59,983 bases of DNA from Tolypothrix carrinoi HA7290-LM1 (GTDB lineage Bacteria; Cyanobacteriota; Cyanobacteriia; Cyanobacteriales; Nostocaceae), in the NCBI GenBank assembly GCA_019358935.1, contig JAHHIK010000044.1, positions 1 to 59,983 of the forward strand, given 5' to 3'. Positions 4,345 through 47,444 of this stretch are shown piece by piece. Below the pieces are notes generated by a model, which was given only the letters and a program-made list of their open reading frames with translations, ran no database searches and was not told the origin of the DNA. Each line of letters begins with the position of its first letter. Positions within the stretch are counted from its first letter, which is position 1. The translations under genes and the position numbers were made by a program.

Positions 4345-4558
4345 AGATATTTATTGTTAAATATTATTTTGTGTGTATTAAGCATTACTCAGCAAATTTG
4401 CGGCAGGGTAATGTTCACCCTGCTTTTTCCATCCTACCGTTGAGGGGAGTAGTGTGCGACTAATTTTTAACTATTACAATTCTTGTTGATGGGTTGTGAA
4501 AGTTCGCGCGTCAAAAATGCGTGTCTTTGAAATTGAGCGATAAATCGCTCACTACGAA

Positions 4559-4876
4559 TCAATCTTCAGGTTGCCAGAGATACTCACGCAAATTGATTTT
4601 CCCTTGAGGGTTAAATTTTATTCCTTCTTCTTCCAGAAGCGATCGCTGTTTGTAATCTGTGCCATTTCGCTGCATTGAGTGGGATATCTCGCCTTTGGCA
4701 TTAATCACTCGATGCCAAGGTATATCTGATAAACTAATATCAACTTGATAAAGAGCATATCCGACTAAACGCGCTTTTCCGTACAAGTGAGCCAAATCTG
4801 CTATTTGTCCGTAAGTTGCCACTCTACCTTTTGGTATTTGGCGGACAATTGCATATATGTTGTCATACTTGGACAT
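4559..4876 (-). CDS. alkyltransferase-like protein (MGMT/ATL family)
   Basis: IPKGRVATYGQIA and PWHRV (Trp replacing the catalytic Cys, as in ATL proteins). Confidence 0.88.
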   Translation of the reverse strand: MSKYDNIYAIVRQIPKGRVATYGQIADLAHLYGKARLVGYALYQVDISLSDIPWHRVINAKGEISHSMQRNGTDYKQRSLLEEEGIKFNPQGKINLREYLWQPED

Positions 4877-29921: not shown

Positions 29922-30521
29922 TTGGAAAAAACTATTACCCAAGACTTCATCACCCTATTAACACAGACCCAAGAAGCTTATCGCGGGCAAAAAATAGAAC
30001 GTCCTCCTGCCGAAGCAATTGTCAATGCGTTGTTACAAGCAGAAAAAGCAGCCAAACAACAACGACTCCTCTACCCATTTGAATCAATACTTGGTAAATG
30101 GCGTCTGTGTTTTACAACCGGAACCAAGAAAGTTAAGCATCGTAGGGGAATTAAGTTAGGCAACGGCTTTAGTGTGCCCAAGTTTGCAGCAGCGCACATT
30201 TGTTTTAGTGCCACCCCAGATGCTGAGAAAGGGGAAATTAGTAATTCCGTTCAATTTGCTTCACTTAAACTGAAACTAACTGGACCAGCTAAATACGTGG
30301 GGAAGAAGAATTTACTAGCATTTGAATTTACCCAAATGCAAATCAGTTTATTTAGTCGTACTATATATAACGGTCAGATTCGCGGGGGTAAGACGAAAGC
30401 TGAGGATTTTTACAATAGACCTGTTTCTGTTCTGCCTTTTTTCGCATTTTTTTTAGTGACACCAGACTTGATTGCAGCGCGTGGTCGTGGGGGTGGGTTA
30501 GCACTTTGGATTCGAGATTGA
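29922..30521 (+). CDS. conserved cyanobacterial protein, PAP/fibrillin-like
   Basis: LGKWRLCFTTG and AARGRGGGLALW motifs. Confidence 0.6.
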   Translation: MEKTITQDFITLLTQTQEAYRGQKIERPPAEAIVNALLQAEKAAKQQRLLYPFESILGKWRLCFTTGTKKVKHRRGIKLGNGFSVPKFAAAHICFSATPDAEKGEISNSVQFASLKLKLTGPAKYVGKKNLLAFEFTQMQISLFSRTIYNGQIRGGKTKAEDFYNRPVSVLPFFAFFLVTPDLIAARGRGGGLALWIRD

Positions 30522-30649
30522 AGATATTTTACAGAAGAAAGGCAACAAGCATATGTAACGGTTCTATTGCGGTGCGTAGGCTAGCAAATACCGCAGGCAT
30601 CGCTCCTAAATTCAAATAGCATAGAACTAGACTACTAGGAGACTGCACC

Positions 30650-30934
30650 ATGAGTCCACAACTCGAAGTAGCGATCGCTGCCATCCAATCGCTCTCACCC
30701 ACAGAGCGGCAACAACTGCTCCAAATCCTCATCCAAGGTGATTCATCCTCAAATTCCCAAACTGACCTGAAAATGCTCAGTGACCAGTTTTGCCAAGGCA
30801 TCACGCTCCAGCAATTGCTTACCACCCAAACCCCTACAACCGTTGATAATATTAAGGATCTCGCTGCTGACTTTTGGCCCCAAGAAGACTCCATTGAAGA
30901 CTTCCTCTCCTTCCTGCGGCAACAACGCGCTTGA
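30650..30934 (+). CDS. putative antitoxin
   Basis: Small acidic ORF (DFWPQEDSIEDFLSFLRQQR) directly upstream of a PIN gene. Confidence 0.6.
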   Translation: MSPQLEVAIAAIQSLSPTERQQLLQILIQGDSSSNSQTDLKMLSDQFCQGITLQQLLTTQTPTTVDNIKDLAADFWPQEDSIEDFLSFLRQQRA

Positions 30935-30955: not shown

Positions 30956-31359
30956 ATGAGTGTTCTTTTGATCGATACTAACATTGCCTCCTTCATCTTC
31001 ATTCGTCAGCGACTATGCCGATCCTTACATACCACTTTTGAGCGGTCATGAATTGGCACTTTCATTTATGACCGTTGCCGAACTTTTTCAGTGGGCAATC
31101 TTGCGTCAGTGGGGCGATCGCCGCCTCGCACAACTAGAGCAATACCTGTCGAATTATGTTATCATTCCAGTCGATCAACTTCTCTGTCGGGAATGGGCAC
31201 AGATTCGTGCCGATCAACAAAGTGCAGGACGGGTCATTTCTCCTCAAGATGCCACCGATTGCAGCAACAGCCATACGCTATGACTTATCGCTAGTCACTC
31301 ACAATATCAAAGATTTTCGAGAAATTCCCAATTTACGTCTCATTACCCCTTCGCTCTAA
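30956..31359 (+). pseudogene. VapC/PIN toxin with two frameshifts
   Basis: MSVLLIDTNIASF / SFMTVAEL...SPQDA / IAATA...LVTHNIKDF are split over three frames. Confidence 0.8.
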
Positions 31360-31476: not shown

Positions 31477-34400
31477 TTATACGCTTTTTAACCCACTCAA
31501 GATAATTCCATCTTTAGCCCGCATATAAAGCACTGGTGTGGCAAAGTCACGTTTATCGAGTCCGATTTCCATCGAAATGGCGTTGCGGGTTGTCTGGATG
31601 GCTGCGTCTACAGGGTAGCCTACAGCGAGGGTGCGGTAAAATTTGTCAGCAAAAAGCTTGGCGGTGTCGTCAAAGATAGGATATTGCATGGCGACTACTG
31701 CGGGTATTCCCCGACGCACGAGGTTTGGTGCTATACCTGCAAATACTTGATGTGAAGACATTCCCGTACCTTCACAGGAATTTAGCACAGCTAATCCCAG
31801 GCTACGGTTGCCTAAAAAGAAGTTGGCGAAAGTCTCATCATCTAAGAGTTTGGATTTGCCATTGGTATCTACCAGGGCAATAAAACCTTTATTGTTTTCA
31901 AAGATACCATGACCGATGAAGTGAAAGACATTGTAAGGCTTTTCACACAGCTTTTGGTCGATGTTGCGGATGGTGGCTGATTGTAGCACATCTAACTCAA
32001 CTTGTCCGGCATCTATGTGTTTTCCCAGTGCTTCACGGATCAGCTTTTCTTCGGTGTCAACGTCCAAGCGACGCATGTCAGTGGGACTGGAGATGACTAC
32101 CAAGATTTTCAGCGGTAGGGTAGCGGTTTGGAGTTCGCGCTTTTGGAGGGGAACGTCAATATAACGCGAGAGCGCGGTTTGGGTGTTGTTTGCTAAAAAG
32201 GTGTTGGTTGCCTGATCGTAGAGAAATTCCCACGGTAGCGCGGCTAGTTCTGGGGAGTCAAACACCAAGCGTAAGCGTACAGCGTATCCATTTGCTTGTG
32301 CGCCTGCCATTGTAGCACGCAATTGACCGTGAATCTTTGGGGGGAAAAGTGCTTGGTAGAGTTCGTTGCCTAGTCCTTTGAGTAAATCGGCATCTTTGAC
32401 TTGATGCTCAATCAGTTTCAATGTCTGCTTAATTCTGTTCATCTCCAACCGCAATTCACCCGACTCGTCACCTTGGTCTGAGGAAACGCGAATCTTGCTG
32501 TCTTTGGTAACGAATATTTGAAAATCGTGGTAATTCATGGTAGTTTGATTTTTAAGTGAATTATCTCTCGCCTGGGACAGTTCCTCTTCTAGTGGTATTG
32601 GGGAATTAAGTTTTTGTTCTGCTTCCACGGGTTGCAAATTGACATCATCAATTAGCCTGCGAACATCGACCATTTCATAGCTGTTATCGCACTCAATCTG
32701 ATACCGACCAGCTTTCAAGCGCTTACGCAAATTATCCAGAGAGTAGGAATAAGGTGTGGGACTGCCTTCACAAACTGTGCAGTTACAGGGAACTAGAGTG
32801 TTATACTGCAAACGCTCAAAAGAGTTGTGGATTTTTTCCAGTTCGTGATTGACGACTGCGAGCAATTCTTTCTTGCGATTTCCGGCTATACGGATTTTAA
32901 TTTCTTTTTGATTGTAGTGTTCAATGACTTCGGCGCGAGTTTGGTCTTTGTTGAGAACAACACCGCTTTTCCAAACGAGGTTTTGCTGTTCAATCCAAGG
33001 ATGTGTCTCAACAATGAAGCGGGTGAGCATACCCTTGGGCATAAAGTCGTATTTGTAGCGCAAAATTAAATTATGGGATTTCTCCCAGGTGTAGTCGGGT
33101 TGGTTGATATCGAGTAGTTGCGGTGCAGTATAGTTGCCGGGACGATAAGGAATTGGGTAGCAAAGTTTAAACCGGATCATTAGTTGCAGCAGTTCATCTT
33201 GCATATCAGCATATTCGTCCTGCCAGATATCAGAAAGATTCTCTTTGGTAAAACGTCCCAGATTTTGCCTGACGCTTTTATTGTCTAATACTTTGTAGAC
33301 AGCAGTCGTTCCCCATTCCGGTTTCAGGATGATGTAATGTTTAAGTGTAGAATCGTCTTGGAAGTGAAGGCAAACACCGAGGTCGTGCAGATAGCGACTC
33401 AACCGTAGCATATCTTGACGGTCAGTTAAATTATTGACTCGGCAAAGTTGGCAGTATTCTTCTAGATTAATGTAGTTGCGGGAGTCGTTTTCTAAGGCAG
33501 AACGGACTCTGACCCAGAGTTTGGGCAAAGGTGTATTGATGTGGGGAAGGTAGCTGATGTAACGCTCAATGGCATTTTTTATCTCTGGTAAACCACGATT
33601 GGTGGCTAAGTTAGTTGCCAGAACTTCTTTTAAATTGGTAAATTCTCCTCGCAACGAGCGATCGCTTATTTGACACTGACGGTCTTGTTTTTCGTTTTTG
33701 ATGATGAGAACTGGGCTATTGTCACTCAAGAGTTCCGCAACCTTAAGCCACCAATAAAAGTTGGTGTTTTCTTGGCGATTATCTGCCACTAAAGCATAGA
33801 GGGAACGTTCTGTCAGAAAAAACTGGTGGGTTTGGTGGTAGATTTCCTGACCACCAAAATCCCAAATATTGACGCGAAAGTCTTTTCCGTTGGGGAGTGT
33901 GAAGTCCCAGCGGATGACCTCAATGCCTTCGGTTGATTTCTCATTCGACTGGAGATTGTAGCTTTCGTTTTCAATTTTCTTTGCCAAAGAAGTTTTACCG
34001 GCTCCTCCTTCACCAATAATTAAGAATTTTGCTTCGTAGATGAGTTCAGTTTCGTTGGGATCTTGCACCCGGAAATAGAAATCGAGAATTTCGCTTACAT
34101 CCCCAGGATTTTGATATAATTCCTTTGGTTCCAAAATTTCAGGTGGAATAGGGATTGGATTTCTACGCAGATCCAGCTTTTTTAGTTTTTGGAGTTGTCC
34201 AAATTCCTTTGGCAGACTGCTCAGTTGATTGCTGCTGAGGTCGAGCGTTTCTAAGTTGCTGAGTTGGACAAATTCTTGTGGCAGACTGCTCAGTTGATTG
34301 TCGCTGAGGTCTAGCGTTTGTAAGTTGGTGAGTTGTCCAAATTCCTTTGGCAGACTGCTCAGTTGATTATTGTAGAGGTCGAGCGTTTGTAAGTTGGTGA

Positions 34401-35520
34401 GTTGTCCAAATTCCTTTGACAGACTGCTCAGTTGATTGTCGCTGAGGTAGAGCGTTTGTAAGTTGGTGAGTTGGACAATTTCCCTTGGCAGACTATTCAG
34501 TTGATTTCTGCTGAGGTAGAGCGATTGTAAGTTGGTGAGTTGTCCAATTTCCTTTGGCAGACTGTTCAGTTGATTGTCGATGAGGTCGAGCAATTGTAAG
34601 TTGGTGAGTTGTCCAAATTCCTGTGGCAGACTGCTTAGTTGATTTCTGCTGAGGTCGAGCGTTTGTAAGTTGGTGAGTTGGACAAATTCTTGTGGCAGAC
34701 TGCTTAGTTGATTGTCGATGAGGGAGAGCAATTGTAAGTTGGTGAGTTGAACAAATTCTTGTGGCAGACTGCTCAGTTGATTGTCGTTGAGGTAGAGCGT
34801 TTGTAAGTTGGTGAGTTGTCCAAATTCCTGTGGCAGACTGTTTAGTTGATTGCTTCTGAGGTAGAGCGATTGTAAGTTGGTGAGTTGTCCAAATTCCTGT
34901 GGCAGACTGCTTAGTTGATTGTCACTGAGGGAGAGCGTTTGTAAGTTGGTGAGTTGGACAATTTCCTTTGGCAGACTATTCAGTTGATTTCTGCTGAGGT
35001 AGAGCGATTGTAAGTTAGCGAGTTGGACAATTTCCTTTGGCAGACTGCTCAGTTGATTGCCGCTGAGGTAGAGCGATTGTAAGTTAGCGAGTTGGACAAT
35101 TTCCTGTGGCAGACTGCTCAGTTGATTGCTGCTGAGGTCGAGCGTTTGTAAGTTGGTGAGTTGGACAATTTCCTGTGGCAAACTGCTGAGTTGATTTCTG
35201 CTGAGGTTGAGCGTTTGTAAGTTGGTGAGTTGTCCAAATTCGTTTGGCAGACTCGTTAAGTTATTAGCAACAATCTGAAGTTCTTCTAGATGATTAAGTA
35301 ATCCAATTTCCGCAGGTAAAACGCTCAGGTTGTTCCCGATAGTACCGACAATACGACCCTTTTGATCATATTGGTATTTGCCGAGAATCAGCTTTTTGAG
35401 TTGAGTCAGCTTACCAATCTCAGCCGGTAAAGCTGTCAAGTCTTTGCCAGAGAGGTCTAATTCGGTTGCCCCTTCTGTTGCAGCTTGTTCAATTAGCTGT
35501 AGCAGTTCTTTCTCGGTCAT
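31477..35520 (-). CDS. LRR - Roc GTPase - COR - CHAT (caspase-like) protein
   Basis: 15 core 23-aa LRRs; GEGGAGKTS, STEGI, DFGGQE; COR motifs (YLHDLG, FMPKGM, CNCTVC); CHAT LPWEFL, HFIGHG, LNSC, VVAMQ. Confidence 0.92.
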   Translation of the reverse strand: MTEKELLQLIEQAATEGATELDLSGKDLTALPAEIGKLTQLKKLILGKYQYDQKGRIVGTIGNNLSVLPAEIGLLNHLEELQIVANNLTSLPNEFGQLTNLQTLNLSRNQLSSLPQEIVQLTNLQTLDLSSNQLSSLPQEIVQLANLQSLYLSGNQLSSLPKEIVQLANLQSLYLSRNQLNSLPKEIVQLTNLQTLSLSDNQLSSLPQEFGQLTNLQSLYLRSNQLNSLPQEFGQLTNLQTLYLNDNQLSSLPQEFVQLTNLQLLSLIDNQLSSLPQEFVQLTNLQTLDLSRNQLSSLPQEFGQLTNLQLLDLIDNQLNSLPKEIGQLTNLQSLYLSRNQLNSLPREIVQLTNLQTLYLSDNQLSSLSKEFGQLTNLQTLDLYNNQLSSLPKEFGQLTNLQTLDLSDNQLSSLPQEFVQLSNLETLDLSSNQLSSLPKEFGQLQKLKKLDLRRNPIPIPPEILEPKELYQNPGDVSEILDFYFRVQDPNETELIYEAKFLIIGEGGAGKTSLAKKIENESYNLQSNEKSTEGIEVIRWDFTLPNGKDFRVNIWDFGGQEIYHQTHQFFLTERSLYALVADNRQENTNFYWWLKVAELLSDNSPVLIIKNEKQDRQCQISDRSLRGEFTNLKEVLATNLATNRGLPEIKNAIERYISYLPHINTPLPKLWVRVRSALENDSRNYINLEEYCQLCRVNNLTDRQDMLRLSRYLHDLGVCLHFQDDSTLKHYIILKPEWGTTAVYKVLDNKSVRQNLGRFTKENLSDIWQDEYADMQDELLQLMIRFKLCYPIPYRPGNYTAPQLLDINQPDYTWEKSHNLILRYKYDFMPKGMLTRFIVETHPWIEQQNLVWKSGVVLNKDQTRAEVIEHYNQKEIKIRIAGNRKKELLAVVNHELEKIHNSFERLQYNTLVPCNCTVCEGSPTPYSYSLDNLRKRLKAGRYQIECDNSYEMVDVRRLIDDVNLQPVEAEQKLNSPIPLEEELSQARDNSLKNQTTMNYHDFQIFVTKDSKIRVSSDQGDESGELRLEMNRIKQTLKLIEHQVKDADLLKGLGNELYQALFPPKIHGQLRATMAGAQANGYAVRLRLVFDSPELAALPWEFLYDQATNTFLANNTQTALSRYIDVPLQKRELQTATLPLKILVVISSPTDMRRLDVDTEEKLIREALGKHIDAGQVELDVLQSATIRNIDQKLCEKPYNVFHFIGHGIFENNKGFIALVDTNGKSKLLDDETFANFFLGNRSLGLAVLNSCEGTGMSSHQVFAGIAPNLVRRGIPAVVAMQYPIFDDTAKLFADKFYRTLAVGYPVDAAIQTTRNAISMEIGLDKRDFATPVLYMRAKDGIILSGLKSV

Positions 35521-35750
35521 GAGTAATTAGGGGGAGGGGAGGGGGGAGTGGGGGGACAAGGGGGAGTGGGGGGACAAGGGGGAGTGGGGGGACAAGGGGG
35601 AGATAGCTAGTGGTGGGTTATAACGAAGTTTAACGCACCATTTATGGTTTTAGGTGCTGTACTTTCTGCAATAATACACCCGACGGTGGTTTTATATTTA
35701 ATTCAACCTACCTACTTAGTACAGCGATAAGTCTGATTTTTTCGTATAAC

Positions 35751-36212
35751 GAGTGTTTGATACTGATTCGAGAGTCTTTGAACCTGATTAATCACTCTTT
35801 GAACCTGATGAATCAGTCTTTTATATAGATGAATCACTCTTTTATATGGATGAATCAGTCTTGGAACCTGATTAATCAGTCTTTGATACTGATTAATGAG
35901 TGTTGGAACCTCATTAAAGAGTCTTTTAACCTCATTAAAGAGTCTCGGAAATAGATTTGAGAGTCTCGGAAATAGATTTGAGAGTCTCGGAAATAGATTT
36001 GAGAGTCTCGGAAATAGATTTGAGAGTCTCGGAAATAGATTCGACAGTCTCGGAAATAGATTTGAGAGTCTCGGAAATAGATTCGACAGTCTCGGAAATA
36101 GATTTGACAGTCTCGGAAATAGATTCGACAGTCTCGGAAATAGATTCGACAGTCTCGGAAATAGATTCGACAGTCTCGGAAATAGATTCGACAGTCTCGG
36201 AAATAGATTCGA
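35751..36212. repeat. 22 x 21-bp tandem array (9 variable units, then 13 x (G/C)AGTCTCGGAAATAGATT(T/C)GA)
   Basis: Exact 21-bp phase from 35751, no spacers. Confidence 0.9.
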
Positions 36213-36330
36213 CAGTTAATGAGCAATTTTCGTAGGGTGCGTTATTGTTCGTAACGCACCCAGCACATAATCTTACTCGTAGTAAGCGCTGTCTTCGCTT
36301 ATTTTAAGCACTAAAGTGCTTACTACGTTG

Positions 36331-36550
36331 TCAAAACAAATCTAAGTCTGTCAAGGCACCAAGACTGCTGGAAGATATTAATTTGGCATATTTCCCTAAC
36401 ACACCCTTCGTATAACGAGGTGGACGGGGTTGCCAATTTGCACGACGATTAGCTAATTCTTCATCGGATACGTTTAATTGCAACAGTCGCGCATGAGCAT
36501 CAATTGTGATACTATCACCTTCTTCCACAAGAGCGATCGCTCCCCCAACT
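36331..36550 (-). pseudogene. ilvD: 3' fragment of ilvD (duplicate of 44429-44648)
   Basis: About 16 substitutions in 220 bp, no indels. Confidence 0.9.
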
Positions 36551-36551
36551 C

Positions 36552-36654
36552 TTTCTGTTCTGTCTTTTTTCGCATTTTTTTAGTGACACCAGACTTGATT
36601 GCAGCACCTAGTCGTGGGGGTGGGTTAGCACTTTGGATTCGAGATTGAAGATAT
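36552..36654 (+). pseudogene. 3' fragment of the 29922-30521 gene
   Basis: Near-identical to 30424-30527, with 4 substitutions and a 1-bp deletion. Confidence 0.88.
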
Positions 36655-36822
36655 AGCAATTCTCCTTTCATGGTGAATAAGAGCGTATTTGTAGGGACAA
36701 TTCATGAATTGTCCCTACATTCGCCGTGATAATATATTGTACACAAACGATATACTTAATTGCGGTTTTACTTTTCTGAAGTGGGAATACGAAAATCAGT
36801 AGTTTCTTATACTTTAGTAATC

Positions 36823-37554
36823 ATGGCTTATATTGAGAAAATTCTGGAAAAATTACAAAATCTTTCTGATACGTCACTCCAAGAAGTTCTAGATTTTATT
36901 GATAATTTGGAGTCTCGAAATCGAATTGCTAAACTATCATCACCAACAGATAATGACGAATCCCTACTAATAAACTTGAAAAAAGCAACTGCACACTATC
37001 AAAACGGGATCGCAAAGTTGCAATTAAAAGAATATCAACAAGCGATCGCAGAATTTAATTACGCATTACAAATTTATCCCAATTATTCAGAAGCTTATTA
37101 CTACCGTGGTAAAGGAAGACACAAATTAAATGATAAAGAAAGTGCAATAGCGGACTTTCAAACCGCAGCCAAACTTTTTTGTGAAAATAACCTAGCTGAC
37201 GAAATGGCTAACTGGACTGTTTTTGAATTAGGTGAGTCAAATAGAAAAGAAGCTATTGATTATCTTCTCCAATATTTTGATGCTAATAGCTCATATGATG
37301 AAAAACGACTTGCGGCTTCTGCGATAAATAAACTAGCTAAAAGCTTCAAAACAAGCTGTGAAATAGCTATACCACATTTATTAAAGAATTTATCTGAACC
37401 GGCTCCACAAGTAAGACAATATATTTTAAAAGCGCTAGATGCAATCAGTCTACCTGATGATGCAATTCTTAAAATAAAGGAAATTGCTGAAAATGATGAT
37501 AAAGACTATAACCGCAATCTAGCGCAAAGAATATTAAAAAAGTATGATGAGTAA
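36823..37554 (+). CDS. TPR + HEAT-repeat protein with a DUF2281-like N-terminus
   Basis: LQEVLDFID N-terminus; YQQAIAEFNYALQIYPNYSEAYYYRG TPR; PHLLKNL...PQVRQYILKAL HEAT. Confidence 0.7.
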   Translation: MAYIEKILEKLQNLSDTSLQEVLDFIDNLESRNRIAKLSSPTDNDESLLINLKKATAHYQNGIAKLQLKEYQQAIAEFNYALQIYPNYSEAYYYRGKGRHKLNDKESAIADFQTAAKLFCENNLADEMANWTVFELGESNRKEAIDYLLQYFDANSSYDEKRLAASAINKLAKSFKTSCEIAIPHLLKNLSEPAPQVRQYILKALDAISLPDDAILKIKEIAENDDKDYNRNLAQRILKKYDE

Positions 37555-37555
37555 G

Positions 37556-37672
37556 TAGATCGGGTATAGAGGAATTGAAACAGCTTCACGCTCAGAAGTT
37601 GTCAAAAACTTTTTCAAGCCGAGGTCAATACTTGTAATTGATTCAGGGTTTATATCTGGTTTAATATTACAA
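37556..37672 (-). pseudogene. tnpB (IS200/IS605 family) remnant
   Basis: Minus strand reads NIKPDINPESITSIDLGLKKFLTTSE, resembling RuvC-I GIDxGL..F..TS. Confidence 0.6.
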
Positions 37673-37927
37673 TCAGAAATGCCAGTGCGATCGCACTTCC
37701 ACAGGTTGAGTTGACGCTAGGAAACCCAACATCTTTTTCTCATCGGCTTCAAGCTGCCGTTCAAAGCGATCGCTCCTAAGCGCCACAATTCGCACTACTT
37801 CTTGCTCATCATTAAACACTACCTGTAACGGTTCGTCGGGATCTATACAAATATTAATGATTGGGCGTAGGCTAGCAAGCACCGCAGGCATCGCTTAATA
37901 TTTATCTAGTGAGCAGTCGTTCGTCTT

Positions 37928-38260
37928 ATGACATTAGCACCCACCACAACAAAGCAGTATGTTGAGCAGCGAGACAAAGGATATTGGATCGAAGGAACAC
38001 GCATTTCCCTAGATTCAGTTGTTTATTCCTTCTTGAACGGAGAGTCCCCTGAAAGCATTGCCCAAAACTTCCCGCTATTGTCACTAGAGCAAGTTTATGG
38101 TGCGATCGCTTTCTATCTTGCTAACCGAGAAATGATTGATGTGTACTTAGAAGAAGGTTCAGCAGAATTTCAACAGTTGCAACAATCCTTTAGAGAAAAG
38201 AATCCGCTTCTATACCAAAAATTGAAAGCATCTCTTGCCCAGAAGCAACGCTCGGTATGA
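37928..38260 (+). CDS. DUF433 antitoxin
   Basis: GTRISLDSVV...GESPESIAQNFP.LSLEQVYGAIAFY. Confidence 0.85.
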   Translation: MTLAPTTTKQYVEQRDKGYWIEGTRISLDSVVYSFLNGESPESIAQNFPLLSLEQVYGAIAFYLANREMIDVYLEEGSAEFQQLQQSFREKNPLLYQKLKASLAQKQRSV

Positions 38261-38286
38261 CAAAGGCTCGATTCCAAGCTGATGCT
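38257..38286 (+). pseudogene. truncated DUF5615-like toxin start (MTKARFQADA)
   Basis: ATGA overlap with DUF433, then an abrupt switch to STRR sequence. Confidence 0.55.
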
Positions 38287-38294
38287 CACCGATT

Positions 38295-38558
38295 AGGGGG
38301 TGTGGGGTGTAGGGTGTTGGGTGTGGAGTGTGGGGTATAGGGTGTAGGGGAAGAAAAAAGCCCCGAATACTGGATACAGAGCAAGTATTTTCAAGTATGG
38401 AAAAAGAAAAAGATGTATGTAGAGACACATGATGCCGAAGTTGAGGTGTCCTTACTTGAAACCCCTAATCTTAACTGCGGGGTCCCCACACCCTACACCC
38501 TACCCCCTACACCCTTTTCATTCTACTCCCCACACCCTACCCCCTACACCCTACACCC
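38295..38558. repeat. STRR arms (GGGTGTA/TACACCC) around a ~130-bp core
   Basis: Inverted heptamer arms. Confidence 0.75.
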
Positions 38559-38563
38559 TCTTC

Positions 38564-41500
38564 ATGACGCAGTATCAATATCAAGTTGGAGGCAGTCTCC
38601 CTGAAGATGCTTTAACTTATGTCACCCGCAAAGCTGACACAGAACTTTATGAAAGTTTGCAAGCAGGAGAATTTTGTTATGTACTAAATTCTCGGCAAAT
38701 GGGAAAATCAAGCTTGCGGGTGCATGTGATGCAGCGATTGCAATCTGAAGGAGTTGCTTGTGCGGCAATTGATATTACAGCGATCGGTACATCAGATATT
38801 ACCCCAGAACAATGGTATGCGGGGATTATTGATACTATTGTCGGCACATTTGGGCTTTACAATGATTTTGATTTAGATGATTGGTGGACAGAGAACGATT
38901 TGCTCTCACCAGTGCAGCGTTTAAGTAAGTTTATCGAAACTGTGCTGCTAAAGTCAATTAGTGAGAACATTGTTATTTTTATTGATGAAATTGATAGTAT
39001 CCTCAGCATCAATTTTAATTTAGATGATTTTTTCGCCGTTATCCGCGACTGTTACAACCGACGTGCAGACCAATTTATATATAAACGCTTGACATTTGCA
39101 CTGTTGGGTGTATCAACACCTTCCGATTTAATTGGGGATAAGCGACGCACACCATTTAATATTGGGAGAGCAATTGATTTAAGTGGATTTCAACTTGAAG
39201 AAGCGCAACCTCTCGCAACCGGATTAGCAGGAGTAGGTGACTCGCAAGTATTAATGCAAGCTGTGTTGGATTGGACTGGGGGACAACCGTTTCTCACGCA
39301 AAAGGTTTGTCAGTTGGTGGTGAAATTTGCCAATCAATCTTTAACTTTACCAGAAATAGTTGCTGATGTTATTCAAAACAAGATTATTCAGAATTGGGAA
39401 ACGCAAGACGAGCCAGAGCATTTAAGAACACTTCGGCATAGACTGTTGCGAAGTAGCGAACAGCGTACCGGACGATTATTAGCTTTGTGTCAGCAGATTT
39501 TGCGAGAGAAAGAGATAGAAGCTGATGATAGCCCAGAACAAACAGAACTGCGTTTAACCGGGTTGGTTGTGAAACGTGGTGGCAAGCTGCGAATTTATAA
39601 CCAAATTTATGAGACGATATTTAATCAGGAGTGGTGCGACAAAGAACTTGCAAAACTTCGCCCATATGCTAATACACTCAATGCCTGGGTTGCTTCCCAA
39701 TCACAAGACAATTCGCGTCTGTTGCGGGGACAAGCTTTGCAAGAAGCTTTACAATGGTCAACTGACAAGAGTTTAAGCAATCTCGATTATCAATATTTAT
39801 CTGCAAGTCAGGAGTTTGACAAACAAGCAGCTTTAGCAGTAGAAAAAGAAGCTAATCAAATTTTGGCACAAGCGCGACAACAAGCAGAAAAAGCTTTAGA
39901 GACAGAAAAGCAAGCAAATCAAGTTTTAGCAGCTGCACAAAAGAAAGCTAGGTGGATTTTGTTATTGACTGCAACTGGGGCAATTGTTTCTTTAGGATTC
40001 GCTGCATTTGGTTGGCAGCAGTTTAGAATAGCACAAATTGCCACAGGTTTGGAACAATCATCTGCACGTATCTTGCGGTTCTCTGAATTTCCTAGTGTTG
40101 ATGATTTAGTTGAAGCAACACAATCTGCAAATGATTTAAAAAAATTAGTCAAAGATTATCGCTCAGTTAGAGAATATCCGACTGTCAACCCGATGTTAGC
40201 TTTGCAAACCACTTTAGAAAATATTCACGAGAAAAATCGATTAGAGCATAAAGGTGCGCTTGAAAAGGTGGTGTTTAGTCCTGATGGCAAGACTATTGCC
40301 ACTGCATCAAGTGACGCTACAGCGAAGTTGTGGAACCCGCAAGGTATCGTACTTGCTACCCTCAACCATAACACAGAGGTTATCAACGTAGCATTTAGTC
40401 CTGATGGCAAGACGGTAGCAACTGCTTCAAAAGACAAAACAGCGAAGTTGTGGAACCTGCAAGGTAAGGGACTTGCCACCCTCAAGCATAACAAAGCGGT
40501 TTACAACGTAGCGTTTAGTCCTGACGGCAAGATGGTGGCAACAGCATCAGATGACAAGACAGCGAAGTTGTGGAACCTGCAAGGTAAGGGACTTGCCACC
40601 CTCAAGCATAACAAAGCGGTTTACAACGTAGCGTTTAGTCCTGACGGCAAGATGGTGGCAACAGCATCAGATGACAAGACAGCGAAGTTGTGGAACCTCA
40701 AAGGAGGGAAAATTGCCACTCTCAAGCATAAAGGTGTGGTTAGAAACGTGGTGTTTAGCCCAGATAGCAAGACGGTTGGGACTGCATCAGGTGACAAGAC
40801 AGCGAAGTTGTGGAACCTCAAAGGAGGGGAAATTGCTATTTTCAAGCACAACGATGTGGTCTACAAAGTGTTGTTTAGTCCTGACGGCAAGACTATTGCC
40901 ACTGCATCAGGTGACAAGACAGCGAATTTGTGGAACCTCAAAGGAGGGGAAATTGCCACCCTCCAGCATAACGATGCGGTCAACGATGTGGTGTTTAGTC
41001 CCGACGGCAAGACTGTGACGACAGCATCAACTGATAAAACAGCTAAGTTGTGGAACCTGCAAGGTCATAAAATTGCCACCCTCCAGCATAACGATGCGGT
41101 CAACGATGTGGTGTTTAGTCCTGATGGCAAGACTGTGGCAACAACTTCAGATGAAAGCACAGCTCGCTTGTGGAACCTCAAAGTAAGCGAAGTTGCCACC
41201 GTCCAGCATAAGGGTCAAGTTTACAAAGCGGTCTTCAGCAATGATGGCAAAACTATAGCGACAGCTTCAAAAGACAATACAGCAAAGTTGTGGGACTTGC
41301 AAAAAAGGGAAATTGCCACCCTCCAGCATAACGATCAAGTTTACAAAGTGGTGTTGAGTAATGATGGCAAAATAGCGACAGCTTCAAAAGACAAAACAGC
41401 GAAATTGTGGAACCTGCAAGGCAGCTTAATTGCCACTCTCCAACATCAAGAAGAAGTCTACTATGTCGTGTTCAGCAACGACAATAAGATTGTTGGGACT

Positions 41501-42229
41501 GCATCAAAAGACGGTACAGCTAAGTTATGGAATCTGCAAGGTGATGTAATTGCTACCCTCAAGCATAATGTTCCAGTCTACAAAGTGGTGTTGAGCAATG
41601 ATGGCAAAACTGTAGCGACTACATCAAAAGACAATATAGCCAAGTTGTGGAACCTGCAAGGTCATGTAATTGCCACCTTCAAACATAACAATGCGGTTAA
41701 CGATGTAGTGTTTAGCAATGATGGCAAGACTATTGCGACTGCATCAAAAGATGGCACTGCGAAGTTGTGGAACCTCAAAGGAAAGAAACTTGACACCCTC
41801 AAGCATAATGGAGAAGTTAACGGTGTGGTGTTTAGTCCTGACGGCAAGACGGTTGCGACTGCATCAAAAGATGGCACTGCGAAGTTGTGGAACCTCAAAG
41901 GAAAGGAACTTGACACCCTCAAGCATAATGGAGAAGTTAACGGTGTGATGTTTAGTAATGATGGCAAGACAGTTGCCACAGCTTCAAAAGACGGTACACT
42001 ACGCTTATGGACTCAAGTAGGCAATAGTTGGCAGCAGTTTGCTGAATATCAAGCTAGTAACGTAGCCTTCAGCCCGGATGGTAAACTAATTGCGATTGTA
42101 GTTGGTGAGAATACTGTGCAGTTGCGTCCTATTGAGGGTTTGGATGAACTGCTAGCACGAAGTTGCGGATGGCTGAGAGATTATCTTTCTACACATCCTG
42201 ATGTGGGGAAGCAGGTTTGTGGTAGTTAG
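38564..42229 (+). CDS. AAA-like (AAA_35/STAND-related) NTPase - coiled coil - TM - ~15 WD40 repeats
   Basis: [34 protein letters not shown]; 40-aa repeats [21 protein letters not shown]. Confidence 0.9.
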
Positions 42230-42344
42230 GGGACAGGGGGAGAGGGGGGACAAGGGAAGGGAGACAAGGTGTGTATGCGGTGCATAGTCGGCGCGATAAG
42301 CTGGTAGTAACAGCCTTGCACTTATACGCTTTTTAAGCCACTCA

Positions 42345-42454
42345 TATCGGGTTCGGTTAAAGACTTATTATTAAGACCGCAGTTCTTGGTAGGGAGCAGT
42401 TTTCGGATTTTTGCACAGATGCACCCAATAGTAACTAATTTGCCGAACTTGATA
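42345..42454. mobile_element. 110-bp MITE with imperfect TIRs and a 3-bp TCA target duplication
   Basis: TATCGGGTTCGG...CCGAACTTGATA, flanked by TCA at 42342-42344 and 42455-42457. Confidence 0.75.
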
Positions 42455-43441
42455 TCAAGAGGGATCTTCCACCCGGAAATACAAATCGAGAATTTCGCTT
42501 ACATCCCCAGGATTTTGACACAATTCCTTTAGTCCCCAAATCTCAGGTGGAATGGGGACTGGGTTACTACGCAGATCCAGATGTCTGAGTTTTTGGAGTT
42601 GGACAATTTCTTCTGGCAGACTGCTCAGTTGATTATTGTAGAGGTCGAGCGTTTCTAAGTTGACCAGTTGTCCAATATCATGCGGCAGACTGCTCAGTTG
42701 ATTGCTGCTAAGGTCGAGCGTTTCTAAGTTGGTGAGTTTTCCAATTTCTTCTGGCAGACTGCTGAGTCGATTGCTGCTGAGGTTGAGCGTTTCTAAGTTG
42801 GTGAGTTTTCCAAAATCATGCAGTAGACTGCTCAGTTGATTATTGTAGAGGTCGAGCGTTTGTAAGTTGACCAGTTGGACAATTTCGTTTGGCAGACTGC
42901 TCAGTTGATTATCGTAGAGGTCGAGCGTTTGTAAGTTGGTGAGTTTTCCAATTTCGTTTGGCAGACTGCTGAGTTGATTTCTGCTGAGGTCGAGCGATTG
43001 TAAGTTGGTGAGTTGGACAATTTCCTGTGGCAGACTGCTGAGTTGATTTCTGCTGAGGTCGAGCGATTGTAAGTTGGTGAGTTGGACAATTTCCTGCGGC
43101 AGACTGCTGAGTTGATTTCTGCTGAGGTAGAGCGTTTCTAAGTTGGTGAGTTGGACAATTTCCTGTGGCAGACTGGTTAAGTTATTAGCAACAACTTGAA
43201 GTTCTTGAAGATGATTAAGTAATCCAATTTCCGCAGGTAAAACGCTCAGGTTGTTCCCGATAGTACCGACGATATAACCCTTTTGATTATATTGGTATTT
43301 GCCGAGAATCAGCTTTTTGAGTTGAGTTAGCTTACCAATCTCAGCGGGTAAAGCTGTCAACTCTTTGCCAGAGAGGTCAAATTCGGTTGCCCCTTCTCTT
43401 GCAGCTTGTTCAATTTGCTGTAGCAGTTCTTTGTCGGTCAT
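42455..43441 (-). CDS. LRR-only paralog of the 31477-35520 protein (Roc-COR-CHAT deleted)
   Basis: Near-identical N-cap and C-cap, 8 core LRRs, ends FRVEDPS*; the 3' tail of the full gene survives at 42322-42344. Confidence 0.8.
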   Translation of the reverse strand: MTDKELLQQIEQAAREGATEFDLSGKELTALPAEIGKLTQLKKLILGKYQYNQKGYIVGTIGNNLSVLPAEIGLLNHLQELQVVANNLTSLPQEIVQLTNLETLYLSRNQLSSLPQEIVQLTNLQSLDLSRNQLSSLPQEIVQLTNLQSLDLSRNQLSSLPNEIGKLTNLQTLDLYDNQLSSLPNEIVQLVNLQTLDLYNNQLSSLLHDFGKLTNLETLNLSSNRLSSLPEEIGKLTNLETLDLSSNQLSSLPHDIGQLVNLETLDLYNNQLSSLPEEIVQLQKLRHLDLRSNPVPIPPEIWGLKELCQNPGDVSEILDLYFRVEDPS

Positions 43442-43560
43442 GAGTAATTAGGGGGAGGGGGGACGACAGGGGGACTTTCTTGACAGGGGGACTTTCTTGA
43501 CAAGGGGGACAAGGGGGACTTTCTTGACAAGGGGGACAAGGGGGACTTTCTTGACAAGGG

Positions 43561-43798
43561 GAGGACACTTCCGTGCGGGGGTTCCCAAGCCACTGCGTTG
43601 CGGAGGTTCCCTCCGTTGAAGCATGTGGCGTCCCCGTTAAGGAACGTGTCCGTGGACAAGGGGGACAAGGGGACAAGGGGGACAAGGGGGACAGGGGGAT
43701 AAGGGGAGGACACTTCCGTGCGGGGGTTCCCAAGCCACTGCGTTGCGGAGGTTCCCTCCGTTGAAGCATGTGGCGTCCCCGTTAAGGAACGTGTCCGT
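43561..43798. mobile_element. two identical 93-nt nested hairpin elements (43561-43653, 43706-43798) within GGGGGACAA repeats
   Basis: Direct comparison with each other and with 27408-27555. Confidence 0.8.
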
Positions 43799-43998
43799 GG
43801 ACAAGTAGGGTGCGTTATAACGTACCGAGTAGCGCGGAACCCGTTCCGGCAGCGTCTCCGACAGGAGAAGGGTAGTTTAACGCACCATTTATAGTCCCAG
43901 GTGCTGTAATGAATGGCACTAATACACCCGACGGTGGTTTTATATTTAATTCAACCTACCTACTTAGTTCTGCGATAAGTCTGATTTTTTCGTATAAC

Positions 43999-44229
43999 GA
44001 GTGTTTGATACTCATTAATGAGTCTTTGAACCTCATTAATGAGTCTTTGAACCTCATTAATGAGTCTTTGAACCTCATTAATGAGTCTTGGAACCTCATT
44101 AATGAGTCTTGGAACCTCATTAATGAGTCTTGGAACCTCATTAATGAGTCTTGGAACCTCATTAATGAGTCTTGGAACCTCATTAATGAGTCTTGGAACC
44201 TCATTAATGAGTCTTGGAACCTCATTAAA
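43999..44229. repeat. 11 x 21-bp tandem array GAGTCTT(T/G)GAACCTCATTAAT
   Basis: Exact phase; palindrome CTCATTAATGAG at the unit junctions. Confidence 0.9.
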
Positions 44230-44428
44230 GAGTATAACGATTTTCAGTTTAGTCAAATATACCAAGAAACCTAACCCCCCCAGCCCCCTTCCCTTGTAGG
44301 GAAGGGGGAGAATCAAAGCCTCTCCAGTAATAAAAGCTGCTCCTCTTCCCTCCCCTTGTAGGGGAGGGTTAGGGAGAGGTAGGAGAGAGGAATGGAAGCG
44401 AGGTCTATTAACGAACTACACCCAATTG

Positions 44429-46114
44429 TTAAAACAAATCTAAGTCTGTCAATGCACCGAGACAGCTGGAAGATACTAATTTAGCATATTTCCCTAACAC
44501 ACCTTTGGTATAACGAGGTGGACGAGGTTGCCAATTTGCACGACGAGCTGCTAATTCTTCATCGGATACGTTTAATTGCAACAGTCGAGCATGAGCATCA
44601 ATTGTGATGGTATCACCTTCTTCCACAAGGGCGATCGCTCCCCCAACTGCTGCTTCTGGTGCCACATGTCCAACTACCATCCCATATGTACCACCAGAAA
44701 ATCGTCCGTCTGTAATTAACCCGACCGAATCAGCTAAACCTGCACCGATAATTGCTGAGGTGGGTGCTAGCATCTCCCGCATCCCCGGACCTCCTTTTGG
44801 TCCTTCGTAGCGAATGACGAGAACATCACCTGCATTTATCTTCTTTGCCAAAATCGCATGTAAACAAGATTCTTCCGATTCAAATACTCGTGCAGTTCCC
44901 GTAATCTTCGGCAATTTTACGCCTGTAATTTTCGCTACCGCTCCTTCTGTCGCCAGATTTCCTCTGAGGATAGCCAAGTGTCCTTGGCGATACATCGGGT
45001 TATCCCAAGGACGAATTACATCTTGGTTAGGGGATGGTTCATCTGGTATATCTGCCAAGACTTCCGCAATTGTTTGCCCGGTGATGGTGAGAGCATCTGC
45101 GTGAAGTAAATCATGCACAAGTAGCATTTTCATCACTTGGGGAATACCACCAGCTTTGTGTAAGTCGGTAGCTACATAACGTCCGCTGGGTTTTAAATCG
45201 CACAAAACTGGAACGCGAGCGCGGATGATTTCAAAGTCATCTAAATTAAGTTCAACACCAGCAGTGTGAGCGATCGCCAAAAAATGCAATACTGCATTTG
45301 TGGAACCACCGACTGCCATAACCACCGAAATGGCATTCTCGATAGATTTGCGAGTGATAATTTGCCTGGGTAAGATTTGCTTGCGAATTGCCTCAACTAA
45401 GTAAAACGCGGATTTTTCTGTACTATCTGCCTTTTCCGCATCTTCTGCCGCCATCGTCGAGGAATATGGTAAACTCATACCCAGCGCCTCAAAAGCGGAA
45501 GACATCGTATTCGCTGTGTACATTCCTCCACAGGAACCAGCACCAGGACAAGCTTTGCCCTCAACTTCTAAAAGTTCCTTCTCGTCAATTTTCCCAGCAC
45601 TGTATTGTCCGACAGCTTCAAAAGAACTGATAACAGTTAAATCGCGTCCATCGTGGTGTCCGGGTTTGATTGTACCACCATAAACAAAGATAGCCGGGAT
45701 ATTCATGCGAGCGATCGCAATCATCGCTCCAGGCATATTTTTATCACAACCCCCAATGGCAAGTACACCATCCATACTTTGCCCATTGCAAGCAGTTTCA
45801 ATCGAATCAGCAATTACTTCTCGTGACACCAGGGAATATTTCATTCCCTCAGTTCCCATCGAAATACCATCACTAATAGTAATAGTACCGAACAATTGCG
45901 GCATTCCTCCAGCATCTTTAATACTAGCTTCTGCCCTTAGTGCCAGTTTATTTATGCCCATATTGCAGGGAGTAATGGTGCTGTAACCATTAGCTACACC
46001 GACAATTGGCTTGATAAAATCTTCATCTTGAAAACCAACAGCACGTAGCATCGCTCGATTAGGCGATCGCTGTACCCCTTGAGTGACAACTTGGCTTCTC
46101 AAATTTTCTGACAT
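44429..46114 (-). CDS. ilvD: dihydroxy-acid dehydratase
   Basis: [47 protein letters not shown]. Confidence 0.97.
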
Positions 46115-46322
46115 TTTTTTCCCTTCCGCACCATCATCTTTGTTTTAGTGCTTCTTTTGTGCGATTATTTCAAAATATCACAAACTGTAACACAAGATTT
46201 GCGTCGCAACGTGTAGAAAGTACTGCACCTTTCCCTTATCCCCTTTCGGAATTATATATTTTTAAACGCAGAGTATCGCAGAGGTTTTCGCAAAGGTTCG
46301 CAGAGTTTTTGGTTTGAGTATT

Positions 46323-47444
46323 ATGGCTGAATTGAATTGGAAAATTGGCTTTGAGATTGAGTTAATGGCACCGAGGGGACTTAGCAGACGTGACTTAGCA
46401 GAAGCGATCGCGCAGCAACATGATGGGTGGATACGTCCTATTTTCCACCTTCAGTGTGAACCAAGCAAGGTTCCGGGAACTCCGTTATTTCACAATCTTA
46501 CATTGGGGTTTGAGGCGAAAGCGAGACAAGGACAATTGATTGCTCGATGTGTTGACGATCTTACCCTTCAAGACGACTTAGATAAAAGTGAAAAACCGAA
46601 GCCAGGATGGTATCGAATTGTTAGCGATGATAGTAGACTATTAGAATTGGTGAGTTGCCAAACCGATGCTGGTGATTCTCTGAGCGAAGTCCTCAAACCG
46701 ATCGCTAATTTATTCGCTACCAATCCCGAAGAAGGAACTGGGGGGATGGTGCGTGTTGCCGATAGTACAGGAAATCCGATTGCGATCGCAGCACCCCTAC
46801 CGGGAGAACGAGAACGTCCTTGTGAGTTAATTACCCCACCTATCGAAGTTAATCATCAAGAACGCTTAGAAAGTCTTTTAGCAAAAGCACGCTTTCTTAA
46901 CTTTACCATTCCGGCTGAGAGTGCAACTCATCTGCACTTTGATGCTACACCTTTATGTTCTGCCAGAGTTATTGCTAACCTAGTTAATATTTTATGGATA
47001 CATGGGGAAAATCTCAAACGATTGGTAGGAACAAATACAAGATGCACCCGCTTGGGAACGTGGAATGAGGAGTTGTTAGCATTAGTTAATGAACCTGATT
47101 TTTCCGAGTTACCTTGGTCTGATGCTAAAGCACATCTTGCCAAACTTCAGTTGACAAAATACTGCGACTTTAACCTGAAAAATCTGATTCACGAAATCAA
47201 GAGCAAACATACCTTTGAAGCTCGTATTTTTCCATCTTCGATGCACCCACAACCGATTATTGAAGCAGCAGCGTTGATGGAAGCAATTCTACGTTATGCA
47301 ATAACAGCACCCAAAATATCATTCTCTGCACCCCTAGAATGGAAATTACAATTGGTGCAGGAGTTTCTCAAAGAACTACCACTATCTGAAGATTTTCGCT
47401 TTGTTTGGTTGTCTCGCGCCAAAAGGATATCACATATATTGTAG
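46323..47444 (+). CDS. putative amidoligase (COOH-NH2 ligase fold)
   Basis: IGFEIE, ELITPP, HLHF, KY..FNL, FEAR motif series. Confidence 0.7.
   Translation: MAELNWKIGFEIELMAPRGLSRRDLAEAIAQQHDGWIRPIFHLQCEPSKVPGTPLFHNLTLGFEAKARQGQLIARCVDDLTLQDDLDKSEKPKPGWYRIVSDDSRLLELVSCQTDAGDSLSEVLKPIANLFATNPEEGTGGMVRVADSTGNPIAIAAPLPGERERPCELITPPIEVNHQERLESLLAKARFLNFTIPAESATHLHFDATPLCSARVIANLVNILWIHGENLKRLVGTNTRCTRLGTWNEELLALVNEPDFSELPWSDAKAHLAKLQLTKYCDFNLKNLIHEIKSKHTFEARIFPSSMHPQPIIEAAALMEAILRYAITAPKISFSAPLEWKLQLVQEFLKELPLSEDFRFVWLSRAKRISHIL

Follow-up and report, generated by a model that had tools for sequence, protein, structure and literature searches.

A diversifying LRR-Roc-COR-CHAT receptor gene in a tandemly doubled fibrillin-ilvD interval of Tolypothrix carrinoi

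Results

Gene content of the interval

The window analysed here is a stretch of 59,983 nucleotides from Tolypothrix carrinoi HA7290-LM1 (contig JAHHIK010000044.1). The interval between a fibrillin-like core gene and ilvD is present in it twice in tandem, as slot A and slot B (Table 1). A preliminary description had grouped four genes of this region into one immune locus, and HMM and structure searches recovered all the domains that it named, including a TPR/HEAT protein (DUF2281-TPR-HEAT in Pfam) and an AAA-WD40 protein (AAA_35-WD40).

Table 1. Features of the doubled fibrillin-ilvD interval (positions in the window).
Feature	Position	Strand	Remarks
Fibrillin-like core gene, left anchor	29922..30521	+	PF04755; match in 137/151 family genomes
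Fibrillin 3' end	30421..30527	+	Repeated at 36549-36654 (94.4%)
Antitoxin-like small ORF, slot A	30650..30934	+	No Pfam match; precedes intact PIN gene in G025
PIN/VapC toxin pseudogene, slot A	30956..31359	+	Two frameshifts; VapC matches both pieces; aligned to intact G025 copy
Intact LRR-Roc-COR-CHAT receptor-protease	31477..35520	-	1347 aa; Pfam
21-bp tandem arrays upstream of receptor	35747..36216		First part repeated at 43995-44233
ilvD 3' fragment (last 72 codons), slot A right anchor	36328..36550	-	92.8% identical to intact ilvD
Fibrillin 3' fragment, slot B left anchor	36549..36654	+	Head-to-head join to ilvD fragment at about 36550
DUF2281 (VapB-like)-TPR-HEAT protein, slot B cargo	36823..37554	+	Pfam
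Probable tnpB scar	37564..37674	-	IDLGL motif; weak, E 0.11-0.77
DUF433 antitoxin and DUF5615 partner stub	37928..38290	+	Pfam; alignment
AAA_35 (STAND-like)-TM-WD40 protein	38567..42229	+	1220 aa; hydrophobic segment aa 464-482; 40-aa repeats
Final receptor codons left by deletion	42321..42345	-	Sequence alignment
MITE-like insert, 110 bp	42345..42454		Imperfect 12-bp terminal inverted repeats; TGA both sides
LRR-only allele	42455..43441	-	328 aa; 8 LRRs and both caps; 2,554-bp deletion of Roc-COR-CHAT
Intact ilvD, slot B right anchor	44429..46114	-	Pfam

The receptor gene

The receptor was confirmed by Pfam and by its motifs as an LRR-Roc-COR protein ending in a CHAT domain with an intact His/Cys dyad. 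An array of 15 canonical 23-aa LRRs (aa 101-445) is followed by Roc (aa 498-610), COR-A, COR-B and CHAT (aa 1050-1316); the models matched include PF08477, PF16095 and PF25497, indicating a Roc (AP-GTPase) domain and then COR. A Cys cluster follows COR-B, and no membrane or signal domain was found by Pfam. The protein matches bacterial Roc-COR structures (CtRoco, 4WNR) with E values of 1e-42 to 1e-53, and its predicted structure model (pLDDT 81.9) matches SAVED-CHAT and Csx29, indicating a caspase-like CHAT fold. The catalytic dyad, His1204/Cys1249, lies in the motifs HFIGHG (aa 1200-1205) and LNSC (aa 1246-1249), aligns with that of SAVED-CHAT 8TL0 and is invariant in 22 of 22 aligned CHAT domains. 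The GTPase motifs are conserved as well: the P-loop is at aa 503-510, and G1 (GEGGAGKT), G2 (STEGI) and G3 (WDFGGQ) are intact here and conserved in 59/59, 58/59 and 58/59 sequences, respectively. G4 reads NEKQD throughout the clade, one residue longer than the canonical NKxD, so that the GTP specificity of the predicted Roc domain is not assured. Compared with two orthologues, Roc and CHAT have dN/dS values of 0.15-0.34. COR-A has a single match in the whole genome, and the only LRR ORFs among its 6,371 ORFs are the two LRR genes of the interval, which are alleles of one gene.

Two alleles end to end

The head-to-head junction of ilvD and fibrillin fragments is found in three of 11 genus genomes, including G025 and G152, and since it recurs in two genomes other than this one, an assembly artefact is unlikely. 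The ilvD fragment differs from intact ilvD at 15 of 216 bases (10 synonymous, 5 non-synonymous changes); as these differences are mostly synonymous, duplication of the resident copy in place is disfavoured. The fragment of G152 is another allele, and a tree of the fragments had support on only one of its 11 branches. Site-specific integration was rejected, no integrase being present among the ORFs of the interval. In four genomes of other genera, neither ilvD nor the receptor was found beside fibrillin 3' fragments in the stretches compared.

Slot A has lost the AAA-WD40 gene, and slot B has lost Roc-COR-CHAT through the deletion listed in Table 1. As had been predicted, the cargo between the fibrillin-like gene and ilvD is variable and not invariant across strains: genus genomes carry differing gene sets, with AAA-WD40 kept without the receptor in G025 and G152, the receptor kept without AAA-WD40 in G150 and G124, and the two genes side by side in convergent orientation in G151, whose allele has a single slot. 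The apparent cluster is two partly decayed alleles of one variable site, placed end to end.

The second LRR gene had been described as an LRR-only paralogue. It does encode LRRs only, but it is a deletion allele of the receptor and not a separate paralogue. The same allele occurs in G152 (291 of 328 aa identical), and a homologue search with its protein returned generic LRRs, the best at 63%.

Diversification of the receptor

LRR number ranges from 5 to 19 among alleles, the three full-length alleles having 15, 19 and 5 repeats. For the concave LRR face, pN relative to the repeat-wide pS was 2.45 (bootstrap 2.0-3.0), while the core gave 0.20, gene-converted repeats being counted as independent in this calculation. 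The expected variation in the number of repeats was observed, together with an excess of non-synonymous changes on the LRR face. Two earlier runs were dropped: one with residues fixed by a regular expression (face 2.1-2.3), in which the core was biased low, and one that gave 2.09 for the face and 0.92 for the core but included two arrays whose phase had slipped. Beneath LRR arrays with differing faces, Roc-COR-CHAT is 91-93% identical across the genus alleles.

The C-terminus is also exchanged. Besides 12 CHAT-bearing loci, we compared 59 relatives, whose tails are TIR (39), EAD1 (4), EAD11 (1) or without a match (15), and the same CHAT clade is found on NACHT-HEAT, AAA_35 and Roc-WD40 proteins. 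The gene is patchy within the genus and disrupted by a stop or an insert in two of the 12 CHAT loci; one plasmid carries a full-length copy, flanked by PIN genes and an integrase. Diversification of the receptor is real.

Other cargo and searches for known systems

The toxin-antitoxin modules noted previously are both visible, but their toxins are broken, the PIN gene by two frameshifts and DUF5615 by truncation after about 11 codons. The reported tnpB scar was matched by three of five TnpB-like queries from the genome, albeit weakly. The AAA_35-WD40 gene likely starts at 38567, judging from its relatives. In two-gene AAA_35 systems an effector-AAA_35 gene adjoins the AAA_35-WD40 gene, whereas no such partner lies beside the one in the window, where the contig has a single AAA_35 match; AAA_35 pairs are present on contigs C81, C89, C91, C101, C102, C103 and C111. 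The 21-bp array is one of 152 such arrays genome-wide and was rejected as Roco-specific (two of 23 starts had one by a filter that missed some arrays recognisable as ORFs). Promoters and terminators showed no excess over shuffled sequence.

No gasdermin gene was found beside the receptor, all of whose neighbours are assigned otherwise, with none common among the 12 CHAT loci. PF04598, a model of animal gasdermins that is insensitive to bacterial ones, had no match in the genome, and PADLOC detected no catalogued system at the locus, giving only domain-level matches, including CHAT, among 12 proteins. A search of largely open-access literature returned no experimental phage-defence study of LRR-Roc-COR-CHAT proteins and no report of the fibrillin-ilvD locus or of bacterial LRR-only decoys. 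Neither a ligand nor a phage phenotype was found in that literature for bacterial LRRK2-like receptors, and a 2026 receptor survey mentions neither LRR nor Roc.

Discussion

We consider it probable that a single gene, coding for a Roco (AP-GTPase) counter-invader receptor, works on its own, and that the surrounding cluster reflects history and is not an operon. The LRR face would bind a foreign protein, and binding would free the Roc domain to take up GTP and to open about the LRR-Roc hinge. It had been proposed that Roc-COR dimerisation activates CHAT; this is at odds with the homologue CtRoco, which is dimeric in the nucleotide-free state and becomes monomeric with GTP (6HLU, 8R4B). The GTP step of the receptor may likewise convert a dimer to a monomer, the activation step being drawn by analogy since CtRoco has no CHAT domain. 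The C-terminal protease, then released, would cut a host protein whose gene lies outside the locus and so arrest or kill the infected cell; cell death within the filament and phage defence may be the outcome. As to origin, the fibrillin-ilvD hotspot probably acquired another allele from a relative, which was attached in tandem by a homologous anchor on one side and a near-blunt junction on the other; the slots would then have lost different genes in different lineages while still being exchanged by recombination.

The four genes had been read as one locus-level system, and what we find are leftovers of two alleles. That they cooperate, with paired sensors and a shared protease, strikes us as very improbable. 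The convergent receptor and AAA-WD40 genes of G151 and the AAA_35 genes that come after the receptor at locus L136 would fit, but the two genes are each kept without the other, they lie on opposite strands and no neighbour family is common to three or more of the 12 CHAT loci; moreover, with 49 CHAT and 25 AAA_35 matches in the genome, about 1.5 stretches of 12 kb containing both are expected per genome by chance. The simplest account of the LRR-only gene is that it is what a deletion left behind. It is unlikely, though worth weighing, that this allele is kept by selection as a free sensor, either competing for ligand or damping the full-length receptors, the double slot giving two specificities per genome. 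Two species have its ORF and both caps intact despite 66 differences between them (dN/dS 0.54, P 0.02 against neutrality; chance of no stop 0.055), L136 has an independent LRR-only gene of 326 aa with the same hinge end adjoining a full receptor, and an LRR-only gene is adjacent in five of 27 rows among those listed in the supplement of Kaur et al. 2021, several of which are possibly split genes. Yet the presumably non-functional ilvD fragment has an equally low dN/dS (0.08-0.26), and for this reason the LRR-only value may stem from recombination with intact alleles; the caps by themselves do not reach significance (P 0.095), and G152 keeps the allele in a genome without a COR-A match. A bolder proposal, which we regard as doubtful, is that the doubled slot is a heritable two-allele immune locus with both slots refreshed by recombination on short anchors, and that selection maintains in it an LRR-only allele that ends precisely at the LRR-Roc hinge and has originated two or more times. 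This allele would serve in trans as decoy or regulator for Roco-CHAT receptors, the protease of which would cleave a conserved host protein, no gasdermin being involved.

For the stand-alone receptor, the trigger could also be other than phage, with the same receptor-protease mechanics recognising other filaments, predators, parasites or mobile elements as non-self, in a manner akin to allorecognition. The turnover of repeats and the variation of the face would be consistent with an arms race of any kind, 12 related gasdermin-protease systems gave no phage restriction in E. coli (bioRxiv 10.1101/2021.06.07.447441) and the WD40 protein encoded nearby contains a membrane segment; against this, Pfam places no membrane or signal domain in the receptor itself, and the TIR and EAD1 tails of its relatives are typical of counter-invader systems, so we hold such a trigger to be rather unlikely. 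Far less credible still is a developmental or cell-division signalling protease resembling HetF. The CHAT part does match the HetF model, and the genome has 49 CHAT matches, but the 113.7 bits of the HetF match fall far below the 1200-bit equivalog cut-off, and the gene is patchy, broken in some loci and plasmid-borne, with swapped tails and a diversifying LRR face.

Immune sensing is the predicted role of bacterial LRRK2-like receptors, and the genus offers a natural allele series in which nearly constant Roc-COR-CHAT modules carry LRR arrays of differing length, plus a sensor-only allele. Swaps within this series allow direct tests of ligand specificity, of the GTP step and of a CHAT substrate independent of gasdermin. 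The locus also calls for caution in island-based discovery, as the capture of another allele, followed by reciprocal decay, mimics a multi-gene system. The LRR-Roc-COR-CHAT architecture is already published, and the locus is not a new multi-part system; what the present analysis adds is pN/pS resolved for the LRR face, repeat counts for the alleles, and the description of the two slots in tandem and of the deletion allele.

Fungal NLRs with internally conserved WD repeats change repeat number and have hypervariable repeat columns, and core defence hotspots hold variable cargo between two conserved genes; in comparison, the present site is bacterial, restricted to a genus and itself doubled. 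The receptor shares its LRR-Roc-COR core with CtRoco (6HLU, 8R4B), the 4WNR Roc-COR protein and LRRK2, but CtRoco lacks the CHAT effector, and the receptor has the NEKQD G4 motif and the Cys cluster. With SAVED-CHAT (8TL0) and Csx29/TPR-CHAT (Craspase) it shares the CHAT fold and His/Cys dyad, although the switch in those proteins is cyclic oligoadenylate or CRISPR RNA, and the receptor locus is without such parts. A Runella Roc-COR-CHAT protease, alike in architecture, cleaves gasdermin and kills in a dyad-dependent manner (Johnson et al., bioRxiv 10.1101/2021.06.07.447441); its substrate is the adjacent gasdermin, whereas the receptor has no gasdermin-like neighbour. The immune-type assignment agrees best with the prokaryotic AP-GTPase (Roc)-COR counter-invader systems of Kaur et al. 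2021 (eLife, PMC8195603, section 15, Fig. 6D), where anti-invader activity is likewise a prediction. These combine fast-evolving N-terminal LRRs, AP-GTPase and COR with a variable C-terminal effector, including caspase, and in architecture the receptor does not differ from them. In their supplement, LRR+AP-GTPase+COR+CASPASE occurs in at least 27 rows, 18 of these cyanobacterial, and one record of 1441 aa carries the organism name of L091; the L091 orthologue is 91% identical to the receptor in both Roc-COR and CHAT.

The interval is a doubled, decaying hotspot

The preliminary description had presented these 12 kb as one locus, a cluster of sensor, NTPase and caspase-like proteins. Comparison of the window with itself reveals two tandem units, since the 3' ends of ilvD (92.8% identity between copies) and of the fibrillin gene (94.4%) occur twice, as do the LRR gene's N-cap, its upstream region and its 21-bp array. 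The ilvD and fibrillin fragments meet head to head at 36550, the junction of two versions of the fibrillin-ilvD interval; slot A measures 6.1 kb and slot B 8.1 kb. What looked like a cluster is a doubled hotspot in decay. The 21-bp arrays, which fall into several families and have long open frames in either orientation, occur at 152 places in the genome (7.96 Mb; the window is its contig C44), which excludes specificity for this locus. Upstream of the LRR-only gene a 145-bp dispersed element stands twice in tandem; it has more than 1,200 BLAST matches in the genome.

Features of the window
Feature	Position	Strand	Basis
LRR-Roc-COR-A-COR-B-CHAT receptor	31477-35520	minus	Pfam
LRR-only ORF	42455-43441	minus	Pfam
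DUF2281-TPR-HEAT protein	slot B interval		Pfam
AAA_35-WD40 protein, hydrophobic segment aa 464-482			Pfam (domains)
Fibrillin 3' end, two copies	30421-30527; 36549-36654		self-comparison
ilvD 3' end, two copies	36328-36550; 44426-44648		self-comparison
21-bp tandem arrays	35747-36216; 43995-44233
145-bp dispersed element, two copies	43526-43805		BLAST
P-type ATPase after kdpA, apparently split into overlapping ORFs of 455 and 266 aa	23124-25234
Amidoligase_2 gene between ilvD and tenA, missing or a stub in fetched relatives	46314-47444

Pfam confirmed all four proteins named in the preliminary description, and the intact His/Cys dyad proposed for CHAT held up: all 22 CHAT domains aligned have His1204 and Cys1249, the motifs align with those of SAVED-CHAT 8TL0 (E 0.012), and the modelled domain (pLDDT 81.9) has structural matches in SAVED-CHAT, Csx29 and separase. 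Among named records, a homologue search placed those of filamentous cyanobacteria closest to the receptor (91-92% identity). Among related Roc-COR cores G1 is present in 59/59 and G2 and G3 each in 58/59, and G4 reads NEKQD, not NKxD, throughout the receptor clade. Traces of the toxin-antitoxin modules and the tnpB scar are present, but both toxins are broken and the scar is a weak match. Profile searches of the genome gave 49 CHAT, 25 AAA_35 and 1 COR-A matches; with 48 CHAT and 22 AAA_35 genes as input, about 1.5 stretches holding both within 12 kb are expected by chance per genome.

Slot content varies among relatives

We compared 11 genomes of the genus (G numbers; G000 is that of the window). 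The head-to-head junction also occurs in G025 and G152, and among the matches listed from 201 genomes of the family (169 weaker ones lie outside the list) only these three span it. The swapped cargo anticipated for this interval was observed. Slot A of G025 and G152 kept AAA-WD40, and the receptor has disappeared from between two GGGGACAAG-type tracts; slot A of G000 shows the opposite loss, AAA-WD40 being gone, and a genome-wide profile search found no COR-A match in G152. G151 has a single slot (fibrillin, DUF433/DUF5615, AAA-WD40, receptor) whose receptor carries an in-frame stop; on a second contig ilvD is followed by the receptor's 5' end. The receptor adjoins fbaB, without AAA-WD40, in G150 and G124, and unrelated genes lie 3' of fibrillin in G085, G124, G155 and G156; the G153 locus runs into a contig edge, and the completeness of G154 is 54%. 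No ilvD turned up after fibrillin in 25 loci from other genera, of which 22 cover 19.9 kb and three are shorter. Among further contigs, fibrillin is joined directly to slot B in X4 (depth 3.9, weak) and PIN directly to AAA-WD40 in X3; X1, possibly the source, shows even depth over both slots, and none of the contigs compared covers the whole stretch in one piece.

In G150 (loci L033, L072) about 96 kb separate fibrillin from ilvD; their neighbours (spp-ruvA-bioF, fbaB) are exchanged and each of them has a different Roco nearby, which suggests that two Roco-bearing sites have rearranged with each other. A second ilvD of G152 (L089), 89% identical, adjoins mobile-element-like genes at a contig end.

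Origin of the second slot and of the LRR-only allele

The ilvD fragment of G000 differs from the intact gene by 10 synonymous and 5 non-synonymous changes (P 0.0008 against neutral), so that the two would have diverged as working genes and the second slot would be a captured foreign allele; presumably the capture was a homology-anchored illegitimate recombination. In the ilvD-fragment tree, with 1 of 11 branches supported, the G000 and G025 fragments group (95/97). The G152 fragment lies 12-13 bases from these and 7 from an intact G155 allele, pointing to a later replacement.

The LRR-only gene, previously called a paralog, has N-cap, C-cap and final codons in common with the receptor. It arose when a deletion of 2,554 bp fused the LRR C-cap to the receptor gene's end and so created a stop; a MITE-like element of 110 bp, flanked by TGA on either side, was inserted afterwards. 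Over the first 300 bases it differs from the receptor at 21 sites, much as orthologues do (13 and 20), and by this measure the two are alleles, not old paralogues. G152 carries the same allele (291/328 residues identical). We consider it unlikely that the allele is functional: its ORF is uninterrupted across 66 differences with a dN/dS of 0.54 (P 0.02), and L136 has an independent twin of 326 aa that ends at the same hinge, but the ilvD fragment has an equally low ratio, the caps by themselves fall short of significance (P 0.095), and G152 has the allele without a full receptor to regulate. The L136 twin (3814-4791) directly follows a full LRR-Roc-COR-CHAT gene and is followed by AAA_35 genes.

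Diversification of sensors and tails

Repeat number is variable, as had been expected, with 15, 19 and 5 LRRs in exact phase in the full alleles of the window, L091 and L094. At the four concave-face positions, which we take from the LRR consensus, pN is 0.40 versus a repeat-wide pS of 0.165, a ratio of 2.45 (bootstrap 2.0-3.0; core 0.20, other positions 0.82), from 52 unique repeats of five genes after leaving out two partial out-of-phase arrays. Because the repeats are not independent this is a strong hint of a diversifying face rather than a formal test. Across the receptor dN/dS is 0.15-0.34 in Roc and CHAT, 0.44-0.55 in COR and 0.46-0.80 in the N-cap. In three genomes the WD40 gene encodes 1220, 1220 and 942 aa, with 14, 15 and 8 repeats detected; columns 5, 6, 8, 24 and 26 are the most variable, and a pre-chosen surface set gave only 1.28 versus 0.38. 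In one named genome, two almost identical contigs (L107:6579-10592; L108:7062-10592) encode receptors of 1338 and 1177 aa, 7 LRRs apart, possibly a repeat-number polymorphism within the culture or an assembly split.

Roc-COR is joined to CHAT at 12 of 78 loci; the other tails, in 59 relatives, are TIR (39), EAD1 (4), EAD11 (1) or without match (15). In a FastTree phylogeny of 59 cores, which leaves out L108, split genes and rows below 50% identity, CHAT, TIR and EAD1 tails are mixed within a single 24-row clade; the four CHAT changes counted on it are probably an overestimate, owing to rows that were cut by contig ends and labelled 'other'. A Nostoc plasmid carries a full-length receptor copy, 79% identical. 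COR accompanies 45 of the best 120 matches to the CHAT region (self included, counted by eye), others lying on NACHT-HEAT, AAA_35 or Roc-WD40 proteins. Stacked tails on a Roc-COR core were seen in L096 (8028-11283; TIR then CHAT, split) and L099 (3478-7548; EAD1 then CHAT), and loci of non-cyanobacterial MAGs (L153:1-9947, L154, L155) hold between two and four LRR-Roc-COR-TIR genes in tandem.

Proposed mechanism and known systems

We lean towards a mechanism in which a ligand on the LRR face would free Roc, GTP loading would open the receptor, and CHAT would then cut a host protein, stopping the infected cell. Activation of CHAT by Roc-COR dimerisation, as proposed earlier, appears doubtful by analogy, since nucleotide-free CtRoco is dimeric and its GTP state is an open monomer, with the hinge at the LRR-Roc linker (accessible text of PMC11052575). 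In Runella, a Roc-COR-CHAT protease cleaves its own gasdermin and kills, and the accessible text reports no phage restriction observed for 12 gasdermin systems (bioRxiv 10.1101/2021.06.07.447441). For the window's receptor, a genome search with an insensitive profile model gave no gasdermin match, and no neighbour family is common to at least 3 of 12 CHAT loci, which together suggest a CHAT substrate encoded elsewhere.

PADLOC matched no system to the interval's proteins. Seven other contigs of G000 (C81, C89, C91, C101, C102, C103, C111) carry paired AAA_35 loci, in which the high-scoring gene in several cases has CHAT and the second AAA_35 gene is mostly long; unlike these, the window's AAA-WD40 has no AAA_35 partner gene. 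The receptor is real and probably immune, and the value of the locus is as an allele series for experiments. A term search of the accessible text of a 2026 receptor survey gave no mention of LRR or Roc (PMC13581612). AP-GTPases in related systems are noted in the accessible part of Kaur 2020 (PMC7159879), and the LRR-Roc-COR-CHAT class is already described in Kaur 2021 (PMC8195603, section 15 and supplement file 6). The accessible part of that supplement holds at least 27 COR+CASPASE rows, at least 18 of them cyanobacterial (54 of 58 mentions), and at least 5 of these at least 27 rows have an adjacent LRR-only gene, some of these probably being split genes.
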